Assembly (NCBI GenBank): GCA_951406725.2
Contig: OX597831.1
Location: forward strand, 59,334,001-59,398,000
DNA: 64,000 nt
Source of the DNA: Octopus vulgaris
Lineage: Eukaryota
Direction of reading: 5' to 3'
Part shown: piece by piece, positions 8,385-56,340 of the stretch
How positions within the stretch are numbered: the first letter of the stretch is position 1
How the letters are laid out: every line of letters starts with the position of its first letter
The notes under the pieces: generated by a model
What the model saw: the letters and a program-made list of their open reading frames with translations, nothing else
Told to the model about the DNA's origin: nothing
Database searches by the model: none
Translations under genes and position numbers: made by a program

Positions 8385-8418
8385 TTGACGAACGGGAACG
8401 TGGAACTCTGAGTAACAG
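8385..8418 (+). ncRNA. Degenerate hammerhead remnant (same family as 44860-44896)
   Basis: TTGACGA ACGGGAACGT GGAA CTCTGAG TA ACAG; GAAA is mutated to GGAA and the 5' strand of stem I is lost. Confidence 0.5.
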
Positions 8419-8713
8419 TTATTGTGATATCTACTGCTTATTAAATAAGGTATATATATAAATATATATATATAAATATATATATAATTACAAATAAGGG
8501 TGAAAAATTGGATATTAAATTAATAATACCATCAATTCAACACCAAGTGGCTTAGCGCATAAAAACCAGGGATACAATAAAATACGTTAAATGTTGTGTT
8601 GATTCTCCTTGGAAACAATTTTTTAGTGGCTAATACCATAGCGGATTTATTTTTAGCGCTAGAGTTGACCATATAGTGGTCACTCTCTTTTATTTATGTT
8701 ATTATATATATAA

Positions 8714-13440: not shown

Positions 13441-13660
13441 CAACTCATATTTTTGCCACGCAGTATATCCTGAATCTTTAGTATATTTACAGCTTGTATA
13501 TTTTTAAACACTTTCTAGATCTTCGACCCAAACCCCAGCCTGACACGTCCACATTCTGTCGTCTGTCAGAACTTGTTCTTCCCCTCAACCGCTCCTCGTT
13601 CGTTGAGGAATTTTACCCATAGGACTCAGGAGTAGCCAGGGGAGCGTCATTTGCAAAACT

Positions 13661-14170
13661 TCTGTCGCCTTTCTCGACATTTCGGTCAACATACACAACA
13701 CATTTCTCACTACTTCCATCCACTACAAATACAGCGACTCACAATCATACCTCAACTTGTCCTCCACCCACGCTACACACGCCAAGCTCACCATCTCCTT
13801 CTCCCAATCCCTCCGCCTGCGCACGATCTGCAATGACAACCATGACTTTGAGACTCAGTCTCGACTCATGGCTCGAAACTTCATGCTTCGTAGATATTCC
13901 CTCACTATTATCCACAACGCCCTTGCCAGAGAACTTCTGTAGATCGTGCTTCGGCTCTCTCTCTCCTCGCCCCCGCCCCGCCATTGCCCGTGTCCACCCC
14001 TCCACCCTACTCCTCCAACGCACCATTCTCCGAGCCTTCCGGCGACTGTAGTCCGACCCTTCTACTTCTCATATCTTCCCCAACATATCCCTCCCCTCTT
14101 TCAAACGAGCCCACAACCTACATGACCTCCTGTTCCACATTTTTTTCGCAAACTCTACCTCCTCTCAAAC
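13661..14170 (+). mobile_element. Penelope-like element (Neptune-type) RT thumb/linker fragment
   Basis: SVAFLDISVNI...SIHYKYSDSQSYLNLSSTH..HAKLTISFSQSLRLRTICND..DF...RRYSLTII..AL, then HPSTLLLQRTILRAFRRL..DP...IFP...SFKRAHNL.DLL; these are PLE-diagnostic motifs. Confidence 0.88.
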
Positions 14171-23856: not shown

Positions 23857-23913
<57 letters not shown>

Positions 23914-23926
23914 CAGATCTCACTAT

Positions 23927-23973
23927 CCTGGGCTGATGACGGGTTAAGACCCAGAAACATGCATGTCCTCGGG
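23927..23973 (+). ncRNA. Type I hammerhead ribozyme
   Basis: CCTGGG-CTGATGA-CGGGT TAAG ACCC A-GAAA-CATGCATG-TC-CTCGGG: full core, palindromic stem III, GUC site at 23965-23967. Confidence 0.85.
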
Positions 23974-24280
23974 TGTGAATCTAGGCTGAAAGGGGTGCTT
24001 GCCTCCCCTTCACAAATATAAGGACACAGAAAATGTGTCAAAGCCGACAGGGAGCGCTCGATGCTTCCTGGGGCTAAACAGCGGTGGTGTAATTCCCATA
24101 TGGGTCTGTCACGTTAAGTTGACAGTATACAACCACTATATCGCTCCACCACCGCTCATGTCTCTTTGAGGCATTTAGAAATTTAATATTTCTGATTACG
24201 ATAACCAGTGAATAAATTTCACTGTAAATATATATATTTGTGAAGGCTGGACAGGCACCTCAATCAGCAGATCTCACTAT

Positions 24281-24327
24281 CCTGGGCTGATGACGGGTTA
24301 AAACCCAGAAACATGCATGTTCTCGGG
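24281..24327 (+). ncRNA. Type I hammerhead ribozyme (second tandem copy)
   Basis: CCTGGG-CTGATGA-CGGGT TAAA ACCC A-GAAA-CATGCATG-TT-CTCGGG; GUU site at 24319-24321. Confidence 0.82.
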
Positions 24328-24544
24328 TGTGAATCTTGGCCGATAGGGGTGCTTTCCTCCCCTTCACAAATATAAGGACACAGAAAATGTGTCAAAGCCG
24401 ACAGGAAGCGTTCGATGCTTCCTAGGGCTAAACAGCGGTGGTGTAATTCCCATACGGGTCTGTCACGTTAAGTTGACAGTATAAAACCACTCTATTGCTC
24501 CACCACCGCTCATGTCTCTTTGAGACATTTATAAATTTAATATT

Positions 24545-24581
<37 letters not shown>

Positions 24582-28507: not shown

Positions 28508-28962
28508 AACAACAAACAAGATGGGGACAAATATCCGTCAAATGTAAATAATATAAATAAATAAATAATAATAGCAGCACACGTTCCAGTTCAATATGAC
28601 TTCTTTATTGTTTGTCAGTTAGTTAGGTTAGGATTATAGTGATAACAACACAGAAGGAAATTCGTATAAATGAATACATGCAATCTCTCGCTCTCTCTCT
28701 CTTTATATATATGTATATATATATATATAAACTCTTATGTTCCCAACGCAATCCCAAACAGCCCAACCAAATCAGATGCATGCTGAATACATTTGGTGTT
28801 CGTTAGGTATGCTGATTTTATGTGTCTTGATTATGCCTGCACTGACGATTGAAAAGTACATTTTGTGCACTAATTATGAAATCATATGATCTGCGGCTGA
28901 ATCTGTTTTTAAGGAGCTCGCTGCGAGAGTTGCATACCCTCACGTTCGGTACACTGTATTTA

Positions 28963-29415
28963 TTATGGTAGTTTTGACTTTAAGAGTCCCTCGTAGCTTG
29001 AGGCATTTATGTATAGCAATGCTCTTAATATATATATATATATATATCCTTCATGCCAGGTTGAAGGGGTGTTTCTTTTGGTATGTCTTGGGTGGCATGA
29101 ATTAAATAGATGTTGGTTGGCATCTGGGGTTTTGTAAATTATGCCGGTTTCTATTTTTAGACTTATTATTTTAATTAGTATATTCAAGAATCGGAACTCC
29201 TTTTCGTTGTATTCTATTGTGAACTGTATGATGCGGTTCAATAGTCTTTTCAATTCCAGGAGTTTGTCTGTGTTTTCATTCCAGAGGATGAAACTTTCGT
29301 CTAGGAATCTTTTCCAATTTTCTTTTATGTGTTGCGAAAGAGCGCTTCCAAAGGTGGATAATAAAGTTTCCTGGTATATTATTATTTCTAGATAGCCCAT
29401 TCTTAAGTTCGCATT
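28963..29415 (-). mobile_element. Penelope-like element RT fragment
   Basis: ANLRMGYLE...WKRFLDESFILW...IQFTIEYNEKEFRFLNILI...IETGIIYK.PD..QHL.FNSCHPRHTKRN.P matches PLE RT domains 5-7 and thumb. Confidence 0.9.
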
Positions 29416-29429
29416 GTCGATAAAATGTC

Positions 29430-29779: not shown

Positions 29780-29840
29780 GATAACGGAAGAGATGTCGGT
29801 GTGGATTTCCACCTCGGCATCCGAAACTCGGAGTTTTATC
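29780..29840 (+). ncRNA. Hammerhead copy with a core substitution (CGGAAGA)
   Basis: GATAA-CGGAAGA-GATGTCG...CGGCATCC-GAAA-CTCGGAG-TT-TTATC. Confidence 0.65.
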
Positions 29841-29954
29841 ATGGCTACCGAATTATTGTCACATATTACATTTACAGATAAATTCCTCTATTTGCATAAT
29901 ATCGAGGTCTCTTTCATTCTTTTGTTATCTTAACATTTTTATCAATATATATAT

Positions 29955-30660
29955 AATTGTTGATGACGATCTCAGTTGGAGTGCACACATCAAGAAGAAT
30001 GTCGATATAGCTCGTAGGATGAGTTCCTGGATCTTAAGAACTTTCCGGTCCAGAGAACAAGGTGTCATCATACCACTTTTTTCCTCCCTTGTACGGCCAC
30101 ACCTTGAATACTGCTGCCCACTGTGGTCTCCCCATACAAGACAAAACATCTCCAGAATTGAGTCTCCCCAGAGGGCACTCACTAAACAAATTGAAGGCAC
30201 GGCCGCTCTCGATTATTGGGATCGCCTTAAAGCCTTGAAACTTTACTCCCTCCAGCGTCGCCGTGAGTGGTACATCATTTGTACGATGTGGAGAATATAC
30301 CGCCAACTTTGCCCAAACGACCTTAACATTAGCTTCAAGGTTCATCCCAGACTGGGACCACGGGCCATACGACCCCTGCCCAATTCAAGATCACAACATA
30401 CATGTGCACTGCAACATAATTTCTTTTCCTCGACAGGCCCTGTCCTATTTAACATTGTTCCGAGGGAGATCAAAGAGGAAAAGGATCCTATCAATTTTAA
30501 ACGGAGTCTGGATAGATTCCTTCAAAGAATACCAGATAAGCCACCCATAATTGGATACAACTCACCCAACAAGAACTCACTACTTGAACAAAATTTGACT
30601 TAAACAAAACTTGCCTTAAACAGGATTCGAATAATCCTATCAGGTGGTGCTATTAAGTTA
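29955..30660 (+). mobile_element. 5'-truncated CR1/L2-type LINE (RT C-terminal ORF 30019-30603 plus 3' UTR)
   Basis: IIVDDDLSWSAHI...LFSSLVRPHLEYCCPLWSP...IESPQR..TKQI...LDYWDRLKALKLYSLQRRRE...FNIVP.EI...FKRSLDRFL. Confidence 0.92.
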
Positions 30661-38630: not shown

Positions 38631-39043
38631 TACTCTTTTACTCTTTTACTCTTTTACTTGTTTCACTCATTTGACTGAGTCCATGCTAGAGCATCACCTT
38701 TAATCGAGTAACTCGACCCCGGGACTTATTCTTTGTAAGTCCAGTACTTATTCTATCGGTCTCTTTTGCCGAACCGCTAAGTGACGGGGACATAAACACA
38801 CCAGCATCGGTTGCCAAGCAATGCTAGGGGGACAAACACGGGCACACAAACACACGCGCACATATATATATACATATATACGACGGGCTTCTTTCAGTTT
38901 CCGTCTACCAAATCCACTCACAAGGCTTTGGTCGGCCCGAGGCTTAGTAGAAGACACTTTCCCAAGATGCCACGCAGTGGGACTGAACCCGGAAACATGT
39001 GGTTGGTAAGTAAGCTACTTACCACACAGCCACTCCTTCACCT
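38631..39043 (-). mobile_element. Full-length tRNA-derived SINE family A
   Basis: tRNA-like head, TTGGGAAAGTGTCTTC (CORE-like), internal (TA/TG)n and (GAGTAAAA)n tail. Confidence 0.9.
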
Positions 39044-44654: not shown

Positions 44655-44756
<102 letters not shown>

Positions 44757-44859
44757 GAAGTAAACACATAAATGTGAAACAAGGTGGAAAAAAAGAGTAC
44801 TCAAATACCAGAGGTAGAGTAATATGCTTTATTTAAAATCAGCAGAAATTTAACAAATA

Positions 44860-44896
44860 CTGTTACTCGGAGTTTCACGTTCCCGTCGTCGGACAG
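44860..44896 (-). ncRNA. Type I hammerhead (CCGACGA core) on a long extended stem I
   Basis: Minus strand: CTGT-CCGACGA-CG GGAA CG T-GAAA-CTCCGAG-TA-ACAG. Stem I extends ~30 bp (44828-44927). The element sits between (TA)n tracts. Confidence 0.72.
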
Positions 44897-45162
44897 CTTT
44901 GTTAAATTTCTGCTGCTTTTAAATAAAATATATACATATATATAATTATATATAGTAGTGACTGTGTGGTAAGTAGCTTGTTTACCAACCACATGGTTCC
45001 GGATTCAGTCCCACTGCGTGGCACCTTGGGCAAGTGTCTTCTACTATAGCCTCGGGCCGACCAAAGCCTTGTGAGTGGATTTGGTAGACGGAAACTGAAA
45101 GAAGCCCGTCGTATATATGTATATCTATCTATCTATCTATCTATCTATATATATATATATAT

Positions 45163-46108
45163 AGTAAAGAAAAAATAGTAAAGAAAAAATAAGATGGCTA
45201 GCAGCAGGCTGTTTCGCCTCATACCGAAGGAATTAGAAATGGCAGTCAAAGACCGTTTTTCCATTTTCTATAAGTGGAGAATCCAAAAGCGAAGGCCCTT
45301 ACGGCTCACATACACAAAACCGGAGTGGCAAATATACGAAATCAGTCACTTACCGTTAACAGCGAACACGTGTTTCTGGTTCGCAAACATAGAAATTAGT
45401 TTGAATTCCGTCATCGGCGCTATATTCGATAGCTTTACCAAATGCCACCAGCCCTCACTTCTGACCCAGCGACATCAGATAGTGGGGTAAGAGCGCAGAT
45501 GTTAAAACTAAGTAGCGACTGGGAACGTAAATTTTCCCTCCAAAATTCTGGCATGCGCGCTTTCTGGGTAATCGTAATGGAATGAGGAATCCACATGGTA
45601 ATGCAATAAAGATGGTAAATAATTTTCCTGTGGTTTTTCATGTAACCAACAATTATTTACCGGTAAATTTCGGTATGTAAATACGACAAATTAATTGTCA
45701 GGACCTTTGTAAGGTTCAGTATATAGTAAAGAAAAAATAAGATGGCTAGCAGCAGGCTGTTTCGCCTCATACCGAAGGAATTAGAAATGGCAGTCTAAGA
45801 CCGTTTTTCCATTTTCTATAAGTGGAGAATCCAAAAGCGAAGGTTTTGTGTATGTGAGCCGTAAGGGCCTTCGCTTTTGGATTCTCCACTTATAGAAAAT
45901 GGAAAAAACGGTCTTTGACTACCATTTCTAATTCCTTCGGTATGAGGCGAAACAGCCTGCTGCTGGCCATCTTATTTTTTCTTTAGTATATACTGAACCT
46001 TACAAAGGTCCTGACAATTAATTTGTCGTATTTACATACCGAAATTTACCGGTAAATAATTGTTGGTTACATGAAAAACCACAGGAAAATTATTTACCAT
46101 CTTTATTG

Positions 46109-46111
<3 letters not shown>
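45163..46111 (-). mobile_element. pLTR/retrozyme-like insert: 549-bp unit, partial tandem repeat and inverted copy
   Basis: 45177-45294 is repeated at 45726-45843; 45602-45843 is inverted at ~45866-46111. Confidence 0.85.
45361..45421 (-). ncRNA. Type I hammerhead (CCGAUGA core)
   Basis: Minus strand: AGCG-CCGATGA-CGG AATTC AAAC..GTTT GCGAA CC A-GAAA-CACGTG-TT-CGCT. Confidence 0.75.
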
Positions 46112-46173
<62 letters not shown>

Positions 46174-46404
46174 TGTGTGTGTTTGTGTGTCTGTGCTTGT
46201 CCCCCTAGCATTGCTTGACAACCGATGCTGGTGTGTTTATGTCCCCGTTACCTAGCGGTTCGGCAAAAGAGACCGATATAATAAGTACTGGGCTTACAAA
46301 AAGAATACGTCCCGGGGTCGAGTTGCTCGATTAAAGGCGGTGCTCCAGCATGGCCGCAGTCAAATGAGTGAAACAAGTAAAAGAGTAAAAGAGAGAGTAA
46401 AGAG

Positions 46405-46435
<31 letters not shown>

Positions 46436-47017: not shown

Positions 47018-47119
47018 GGGGGTCACAATATGCCGTGCGTATGCAATTTCCGTGTATGAGTCTATTTGCTTCTTAACATATTCTGTAAATGGAAAACTTT
47101 CATGATGAATATTCTTTTA

Positions 47120-47248
47120 TTCTTTTATTCTTTTACTTGTTCCTATTATTTGAATGCGGCCATGCTGGAGCACCGCCTTTGCCGATCCGCGAAGTTACAG
47201 GGACGTAAACACACCAGCATCGGTTATCAAGCGATGGTGGGGCACGAA

Positions 47249-47339
<91 letters not shown>

Positions 47340-48008
47340 GTGTACACAAGAGAAACTACCTTTAACAGGCAGCTTTAGGTGCTAGACACAGTAAAAAAGA
47401 ATTGAATGAAAAATAAACATTTTTACCTTGTCATTTTTTTATGGTAAAACCTAAGTTTCGAATTTTATTTAGCAAATAAATTAACTTGCTAGACGAAGTT
47501 ATCTTCAGTGACCGCGCCATAACATTAACATATAATTTAAAGACAAATAACAACATCTCTCATCATTATATATTATGATTTTTCAAATTCACCGCGTAGG
47601 CGCAGTTTCAGTCGGCAGCAGATGAAAAATGCCGAGCTAATTTTCTGAAAATTCTAAAATCATATATACGTAAAATATATAGGGTAGTGAGTCTTTAGAA
47701 ATTTCACTACCAGTAGTCTACCATGTACAAATAATGTCAATAGACAACATATTCTCAATATAAAATAGTGTACATTTAAACACAAGAGAAACTATCTTTA
47801 ACAGGCAGCTTTACACGCTAGAAGAAGCAGTCAAAACGACCAAGACCACATTTAAGATGGGCTTCTTTGAGTTTCTCTCTACCATATCCACTCACAAGAC
47901 AGTGGCCTGCCTGAGGCTATAATAGAAGACACATACCCAAGGTGCCAAGATGTGAAACTGAACCCGAACCATGTAGTTGGGAGGAAATCTACTTACCACA
48001 CAGCCACT
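47120..48008 (-). mobile_element. SINE family A split by a ~520-bp insert at its internal microsatellite
   Basis: 3' half at 47120-47260 and 5' half at 47858-48008. The insert (47337-47850) has terminal direct repeats ATAGTGTACA..CAAGAGAAACTA.CTTTAACAGGCAGCTTTA. Confidence 0.8.
47443..47513 (-). ncRNA. Degenerate type I hammerhead
   Basis: Minus strand: GGTCA-CTGAAGA-TAAC...TAGCAA..TTGCTA...TTC-GAAA-CTTAGG-TT-TTACC. Confidence 0.58.
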
Positions 48009-55099: not shown

Positions 55100-56340
55100 T
55101 ATGCCTTTCTCTGCAGCAGGGTCGGCCTAACTTAGCCCTTACATCAGGTCGAAGATGTCCTTAAAGCCTTGGGATCATGCTCGAACTCTGTTGTCATATC
55201 TTGGCTTCAGCAAAGCATTCGACAGGGGCACGACCACAATATCTTTCTGTCAAAATTGTTAAATGTTGGAATCTGTAGAAAACTGCTTAACTGAATTGAG
55301 TATTTCCTGGAGAACAGAGCCTGAACACAACATGTGATCGGTGGAATCGATTCAGGCTCGGAAAAGTCACTAGTGGTGTTCCTCAGTGTATATAAACGAT
55401 ATTTCAAGTGTCATCTAACAGAAAAGTGAAAATATTCGTCAATGACTACAAGTTTCCGAAGCGTATCAACAGAGAGGAAGACCGAAATGAAATCCAATCT
55501 GATCTACAAGCTGTAAGTCAATGAGCAGACAAAAAACATAATGAAACTAAACGAGGGGAAATTTGAACTGATGCATTTTGGAAGAAAGACTATGCTAGAA
55601 CAATCATATTCTCTTCCTTCAGGGGAACCAATCAGATCATCTAATAATATCAGAGAATTAGGAATAATCGTTGACAACAATCTCAGCCGGAGTGTCCATA
55701 TCAACAACAAAATCGGTGTAGCTCCTAGGATGAGTTCCTGGATGCTAAGTACATTTTGGTCCAGAGAACGATGTGTCGTCATTCCTCTTTTCCTCCTCCT
55801 TTGTATGGCCACACCTCGAATAATGCTGCCCCTTGTGTTCTCTCCATACGAAACAAAACATTTTGAAAATTGAATCACTTCAGAGAACATTCACTAAAAG
55901 AAGTAACGGGATGATTCATCTCGATTATTGGGACCCTCTTAAAGCATTGAAAACCTATTCTCTCCAGCGTCGCCATGTGCGAAACATTATTTGCAAAATG
56001 TGGAGAATACACCACCAGCATTGCCCCAACGACCGCAACATTAGTTTCAGTATTCATCTAATGCTAGGTCCATAGGCCATAACTTCCCTGCCAAAATCAG
56101 GATCCGTATTTAACAATGTCCCACAACAAGTCAAAGAGGAAAAGGATATCATCAACTTTAAACGGATGTGGACAAAATTTTTAAGAAATACCAGATAAGA
56201 CACCTGTATCTGGATACAACTCACTCAACAAGAACTTCCAACTCGAATGGGCCACGATACCACAACACTTGACTTAAAAACGATTGAGCAAATCTTATGT
56301 GGTGCTACTATGTTAGACATGGCCTGAACCAATCTTTGCT
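55100..56340 (+). mobile_element. Decayed CR1/L2-type LINE RT
   Basis: L.FSKAFD.(H), IFVNDY (YADD equivalent), Q.DL...W...N.MKLNEGKFELMHFG, IRELGIIVDNNLS, YWD.LKALK.YSLQRR; same family as 29955-30660. Confidence 0.9.

Follow-up and report, generated by a model that had tools for sequence, protein, structure and literature searches.

The 64-kb window (the whole stretch of 64,000 nt of Octopus vulgaris DNA analyzed here) contains a 947-bp insert, at positions 45164 to 46110, inside the internal (TA)n of a SINE. This insert is probably a non-autonomous, hammerhead-bearing 548-bp element of the Penelope-like element (PLE)/non-LTR-retrozyme type that was moved in trans by a PLE protein. We observed directly the anatomy of the insert, the repeat family to which it belongs, and the hammerhead motif that it carries; we infer the enzyme, the form of the RNA, and the order of the steps.

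We looked first at the host SINE, whose two halves and interrupting microsatellite are as follows.

44954 to 45128, plus strand: 5' half of the host SINE (94% over 175 nt against the copy at 38631 to 39035)
45111 to 45163, no strand: internal microsatellite of the SINE, left part, (TATC)n and then (TA)9 at 45146 to 45163
46112 to 46169, no strand: target microsatellite, right part, (TA)29
46165 to 46405, plus strand: 3' half of the host SINE (by alignment to the uninterrupted copy)
38631 to 39035, minus strand: uninterrupted SINE copy, the reference (by alignments)

Both halves were colinear with the uninterrupted copy, and the break fell in the internal TA/TG tract. The 5' half had 7 mismatches in 163 aligned nucleotides and the 3' half 19 in 236, the latter within an alignment of 46152 to 46411 (90% over 260 nt). 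With (TA)9 on the left of the insert and (TA)29 on the right, a target-site duplication is unreadable. By eye, the 5' half has an A/B-box-like head, and we take it to resemble the octopus tRNA-derived SINEs; ARAGORN found no tRNA genes, and the tRNA origin of the head is a judgment by eye alone. More diverged or partial copies of the SINE, at 80 to 82% identity, occurred on the minus strand at 850 to 1091, 47109 to 47296, and 47847 to 48008.

The insert itself is built, from left to right, of a 14-nt duplication, one 548-bp unit, a second unit of which 118 bp are present, and an inverted piece of 269 bp that overlaps its neighbor by 2 nt.

45164 to 45177, minus strand: perfect 14-nt duplication of the element's 3'-terminal bases (by sequence comparison)
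45178 to 45725, minus strand (sense): full 548-bp unit (by self-alignment)
45720 to 45725, no strand: sole TATATA in the unit, where the units join and the element has its 3' end
45726 to 45843, minus strand: second direct unit, 5' truncated, 118 bp, with 1 mismatch (45796) to the first unit
45842 to 45843, no strand: 2-nt GG overlap at the inversion junction (by sequence comparison)
45842 to 45986, plus strand: inverted copy of unit positions 1 to 144 (45178 to 45321), with 3 substitutions and 1 extra base
45987 to 46110, plus strand: inverted 124-nt extension over the junction, the equivalent of a "tail," identical to 45602 to 45725

The inverted piece (45842 to 46110) thus corresponds to unit positions 425 to 548 followed by 1 to 144, and it exceeds the second direct unit by 26 nt, which continue the unit's own sequence. 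An overlap of 2 nt at the inversion junction has a chance of about 0.08. The two arms differed at 4 substitutions and 1 indel, all within the inner 118 bp, with no differences in the outer 124 bp. Alignment of the 64-kb window revealed no further copy of the unit. If transcribed, the insert would form a near-perfect hairpin of about 245 bp, a possible double-stranded RNA substrate.

Most of this anatomy had been anticipated in a preliminary description of the same DNA. The splitting of the SINE, placed there at 45163 to 46111, was borne out by the colinear halves, as were the repeat of the unit's start, estimated at about 120 bp (118 bp here, or 121 counting a shared ATA, with 1 mismatch), and the near identity of the repeats (124/124, 117/118, and 141/144 plus one indel). 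The tandem unit held with a period of 548 rather than 549 bp, and the inverted copy does span the unit junction, at 269 bp rather than about 250. The 14-nt duplication, the GG overlap, and the coincidence of the junction with the unit's sole TATATA are additions to that description. The insertion had also been called young. Between copies within the insert we counted 4 substitutions over 654 compared copy-sites (0.6%), against 4% (7/163) and 8% (19/236) between the SINE copies, so that the insertion is indeed younger than the SINE. If a published calibration in which a Jukes-Cantor (JC) distance of 0.09 equals 25 million years (PMC13282606) applies, the insert would be about 1.7 million years old at most, and less if its templates already differed.

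Next, we surveyed the unit in contigs of four public runs (X1, X2, X5, and X8, of which X5 is by our guess an RNA run), aligned to 45296 to 45870; the survey covered at least 40 of the 78 variant rows, 21 of the 101 loose ends, and 32 of the 1212 pieces. The four runs had 535, 395, 252, and 18 contigs on the unit, with depth in 28 to 29 of the 29 bins, and the unit is a repeat family found under at least three organism labels. Two X5 records (22 and 23) run across the unit junction, with over 31 letters to either side of it, and the junction is therefore sequence of the family and was not made at the window locus. Among the pieces listed, no single one spans the whole unit, and the tandem form of the family is read from tiling. 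In one X1 contig, (TA)6 adjoins the unit immediately before 45720, which is where the window copy also ends; this contig may come from the window locus or from a relative. One X1 contig carries another inversion joint, 45387/45769. Among the joints listed, the window's own inversion point was unmatched, and three of the four runs lacked depth in the last bin; with 36% of the words present in the best run, this absence counts neither for nor against the joint. In addition, an exact 30-nt pattern from the unit had no matches in metagenome contigs, and none of the papers found on hammerhead and Penelope elements describes the family, which may nevertheless be present in repeat databases.

The survey also placed the two arms relative to the family. 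At 45611, both arms have a G where all depth of all four runs has an A, and this shared rare base indicates that both arms came from one source. The window differed from at least three-quarters of the depth in X1, X2, and X8 in at least 8 variant rows, and among the rows listed 45611 was the only one in the duplicated stretch. The extra base of the inverted arm is a variant of the family, making up 5 to 12% of the depth in X1, X2, and X8.

Analysis of coding capacity found no long open reading frame (ORF) in the insert. The unit's longest frame (with X at one stop) matched no Pfam families and, against 1.84 billion proteins, gave just two weak, unrelated matches, one to a low-complexity repeat protein and one to a trypsin. 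A spliced hydrophobic ORF starting downstream of the hammerhead was rejected as a candidate: its first ATG was missing in 70 to 78% of the depth (X1, X2, and X8), its start was broken in two of the three local copies, and it had no credible protein matches. A conserved hairpin at 45640 to 45690 was likewise unsupported (z = 0.28).

The hammerhead lies in the full unit.

45359 to 45423, minus strand: type I hammerhead motif with a U4C core and a palindromic stem III (by descriptor; predicted cut 45365/45364)

Its core, 45417 to 45411, reads CCGAUGA, with a noncanonical C at position 4 (U4C), and the GAAA runs from 45376. Stem I has 6 bp and stem II is long and imperfect; stem III is covered by a 10-nt palindrome, which hints at a dimeric fold. 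The cut site is predicted 187 nt upstream of the element's 3' end. The preliminary description had a hammerhead at 45361 to 45421. As a motif it stands, on the minus strand and with U4C, but detection by Rfam failed: there were no matches at the gathering score in the 64 kb, and the hammerhead family was absent among 45 matches at an E value of ≤10. Rfam matches to microRNA precursors fell below the gathering score and were set aside as reflecting the long palindrome only. The hammerhead fold was also absent from the minimum free energy (MFE) fold of the motif region (z = 0.10 and −0.79). With our own descriptor, we found 8 hammerhead-like cores in the window, compared to a mean of 0.05 in 20 Markov controls.

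The U4C change has been reported to lower hammerhead activity in vitro, and a viroid with U4C was still infectious (PMC3088659). The canonical U at 45416 accounted for 92%, 53%, 51%, and 59% of the summed contig depth in the four runs, figures that represent depth and not copy number. At 45360 and 45380, the window differed from all depth in the three large runs, and the letters of the runs improve stems I and II. Because the canonical base is common and these letters improve the stems, the hammerhead of the 548-bp family is predicted to be better than that of the window copy. Stem III was shorter yet palindromic, by eye, in X8 and X2 loose ends among those listed, and PLE hammerheads with a small palindromic helix III have been described (PMC4209133). 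Separately, X1 and X2 loose ends before 45422 appear by eye to belong to a diverged relative whose core begins UU and not CU.

We propose the following course of insertion. A tandem transcript of two to three units would be made, with its hammerhead mostly uncut, and both strands of the SINE's (TA)n would be nicked. The left end would prime reverse transcription at the unit's UAUAUA and, with one restart, which we infer from the 14-nt duplication, would copy 1.2 units. The right end would prime at a point 124 nt farther toward the 3' end of the unit, using either the same multimer or a second RNA, and would copy 269 nt. The two cDNA ends would then be joined via the 2-nt GG/CC overlap, as in twin or dual priming. 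The PLE protein of anole Poseidon is reported to cut and extend both target strands, to prefer AT-rich DNA, to initiate at two fixed sites within the RNA, downstream of the hammerhead, and to use uncut RNA (PMC11167929). In the published PLE layout, a shorter inverted pLTR adjoins two direct pLTRs, and one inverted copy carries a tail (PMC3846280; PMC8557442); the Penelope-like tandem plus inverted arrangement recognized in the preliminary description matches this layout. The anatomy likewise supports the retro-insertion into the SINE's (TA)n proposed there. The "strand switch" suggested there, taken as that of a single cDNA primed from the left flank, is at odds with the way the 26-nt spacer is oriented: fold-back of a left-primed cDNA would leave the spacer direct, which we did not see.

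Some observations count against a PLE-mobilized element. We found no autonomous partner and no pLTR homology within the window, the unit has no credible protein match, and the right end matches the unit weakly (GGTAA in the unit before the join, TATAT in the target). To the same side belong the length of the tail (124 nt), the roughly 8% chance of a 2-nt overlap, the reading of the family's tandem form from tiling, and a hammerhead that is weaker in the window copy than in most of its relatives. On the supporting side, two decayed ORF fragments, at 28963 to 29427 (minus strand) and 13607 to 13942 (plus strand), matched Atlas clusters with PF26215 at 0.94 to 0.97, one of them also with RVT_1. 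These resemble C-terminal pieces of Penelope-like reverse transcriptases (RTs); a Pfam scan of the two fragments returned no families.

The same element could have acquired its inversion by copying a single template, although we consider this unlikely. Either an antisense RNA multimer whose end lies at unit position 144 would fold onto the GG at 117 to 118 and prime itself, or a single circle would be copied with a strand switch. Self-priming of an antisense RNA would give the 26-nt spacer the orientation that it has, and this model has been proposed for rotifer Penelopes (PMC3846280). A circle is in keeping with the fold of the unit, which as a circle exceeded that of shuffles (z = −3.87 sense and −1.9 antisense; 59% paired; none of 60 shuffles as good), and mussel retrozymes are reported to yield abundant circles (PMC7229834). 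However, one template predicts identical arms, whereas those of the insert differ at the five places given above, all in the inner 118 bp, and the extra base of the inverted arm is a family variant. Moreover, the self-priming helix would be just 2 bp, and the unit is far less self-paired than a 354-bp tandem unit that the window also contains (z = −9.68). Three of the four substitutions lie in one 144-nt stretch of the inverted piece (post hoc P value = 0.036); this clustering mildly disfavors a monomer circle as the template and mildly favors a mixed multimer or two RNAs.

The same clustering in the inner part of the inverted piece could point to a compound locus, in which two separate insertions of the family met within one (TA)n in head-to-head orientation, or copies later underwent recombination or conversion, and (TA)n tracts in the window do collect several elements. 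Against this, the arms overlap by 2 nt with no TA bases between them and have the rare G at 45611 in common, and we regard a compound locus as quite improbable. Such structures do trouble assemblers (PMC8557442), but a mis-assembly or fold-back read artifact is scarcely credible here, given that the SINE halves on either side are colinear and not mirrored, that the arms differ at 5 places, and that the spacer extends the unit's own sequence by 26 nt.

The preliminary description had envisaged permuted ends derived from a circle, and this was not upheld: the 3' end is the unit's single TATATA, and the X1 contig joins (TA)6 at the same site. An end on the unit's only TATATA argues against random permutation. 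Fixed ends had been named there as a refuting outcome, but they are expected of a Penelope origin, since a Penelope-like RT is reported to begin in vitro at fixed positions inside the RNA (PMC11167929). Furthermore, seven of seven independent hammerhead-like cores in the window had a (TA)5 or longer run 94 to 274 nt downstream, whereas 21% of 4814 random positions had such a run within 270 nt (a threshold chosen after the fact). Targeting of (TA)n thus looks general for the hammerhead elements in the window. A bias toward insertion in microsatellites has been reported for Naiads and cited for Neptune (PMC8557442).

It is conceivable, though we hold the idea tentatively and rather doubt it, that base-pairing leads the 548-bp family to (TA)n. 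The nicked microsatellite would anneal to the RNA's single internal UAUAUA and prime there, and another start would lie 124 nt away. Telomere-attaching PLEs make similar use of stretches complementary to the repeats. The element ends on the sole TATATA in 548 bp, and one X1 contig ends there too. On the other side, the unit is poorly matched at the right end, and the 354-bp hammerhead element stops about 40 nt before reaching its own internal TA run. Because these two do not fit, pairing with the target is not a rule in the window. If true, base-pairing would give endonuclease-type PLEs a sequence-based route to microsatellite targeting.

The window contains other elements of related kinds. 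The 354-bp element is a different hammerhead tandem, at 23910 to 24550 (plus strand), with about 1.8 units, (TA)n on both sides, a circular fold with a z score of −9.68, and two canonical CUGAUGA cores at 23933 and 24287; it is a better candidate for a non-LTR retrozyme than the 548-bp insert. An element of about 170 bp, at 44756 to 44925 (minus strand), sits in (TA)n just left of the SINE and has a hammerhead-like core, CCGACGA, with C at position 4, a very long stem I (z = −8.78), and a decayed relative at 8387 to 8455. Four further hammerhead-like cores occurred at 28842 (plus), 29723 (minus), 36673 (plus), and 61832 (plus), each with (TA)n 94 to 274 nt downstream. ORF fragments at 29785 to 30603 and 55517 to 55873 (both plus strand) resemble, by eye, C-terminal pieces of LINE proteins; Pfam assigned no family to the first.

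Finally, we compared the insert with known systems. It shares with EN+ Penelope-like elements (Arkhipova et al. 2013, PMC3846280; Craig et al. 2021, PMC8557442) a partial tandem with an adjacent inverted 5'-truncated copy, an extension on one inverted end drawn from the sequence after the direct repeat, and a type I hammerhead near the 3' end, present here as a motif in the terminal repeat region. Insertion into microsatellites without a clear target-site duplication is shared with Naiad and Neptune (PMC8557442). The differences are that EN+ elements have an RT/GIY-YIG ORF, where the insert has 430 bp of noncoding sequence between its direct repeats; that the tail has 124 nt instead of the 30 to 40 nt reported (PMC3846280; PMC8557442); and that Naiads, the (TA)n-biased clade, are described as having no canonical hammerheads (PMC8557442). 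As the insert lacks the RT plus GIY-YIG ORF of autonomous EN+ Penelope-like elements, it is not an autonomous PLE member. A 2014 paper described hammerheads that derive from truncated PLEs and occur singly or on opposite strands (PMC4209133).

The animal non-LTR retrozymes (Cervera and de la Peña 2020, PMC7229834; Li et al. 2026, 10.64898/2026.07.22.740005), which have been proposed to derive from PLEs, match the insert in having a noncoding tandem unit with a type I hammerhead and in its GC content (41%), and the 548-bp length lies inside the 51- to 972-bp range of Li et al. (10.64898/2026.07.22.740005). In contrast, Li et al. require two hammerheads for an active retrozyme copy, and the locus has 1.2 units and one hammerhead; the unit is longer than retrozyme circles of about 170 to 400 nt and only moderately self-paired; and an inverted arm goes unmentioned in PMC7229834, where the word "inverted" had 0 occurrences. 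Poseidon of Anolis carolinensis in vitro (Frangieh et al. 2024, PMC11167929) offers the same fixed internal starts, AT-rich target, uncut RNA, and extension of both target strands, but the Poseidon start is reported to have no homology to the target, whereas the 3' end of the insert coincides with a TATATA matching its (TA)n target. L1 twin or dual priming (Meyer et al. 2010, PMC2837659) gives the same head-to-head cDNAs with short microhomology at the inner join, and the insert differs from it in having no poly(A), no target-site duplication, and a tandem noncoding template.

These comparisons indicate that the insert works like an endonuclease-bearing PLE insertion, is non-autonomous, and is explained by a known class. 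It is a clean but ordinary single example of a Penelope-type insertion that records both priming sites and the inner join. Craig et al. list the complex tandem/inverted structures and the microsatellite bias of these elements among the unresolved questions (PMC8557442). A high-copy family with short, complete insertions would make the priming and joining steps testable by counting ends across one genome.
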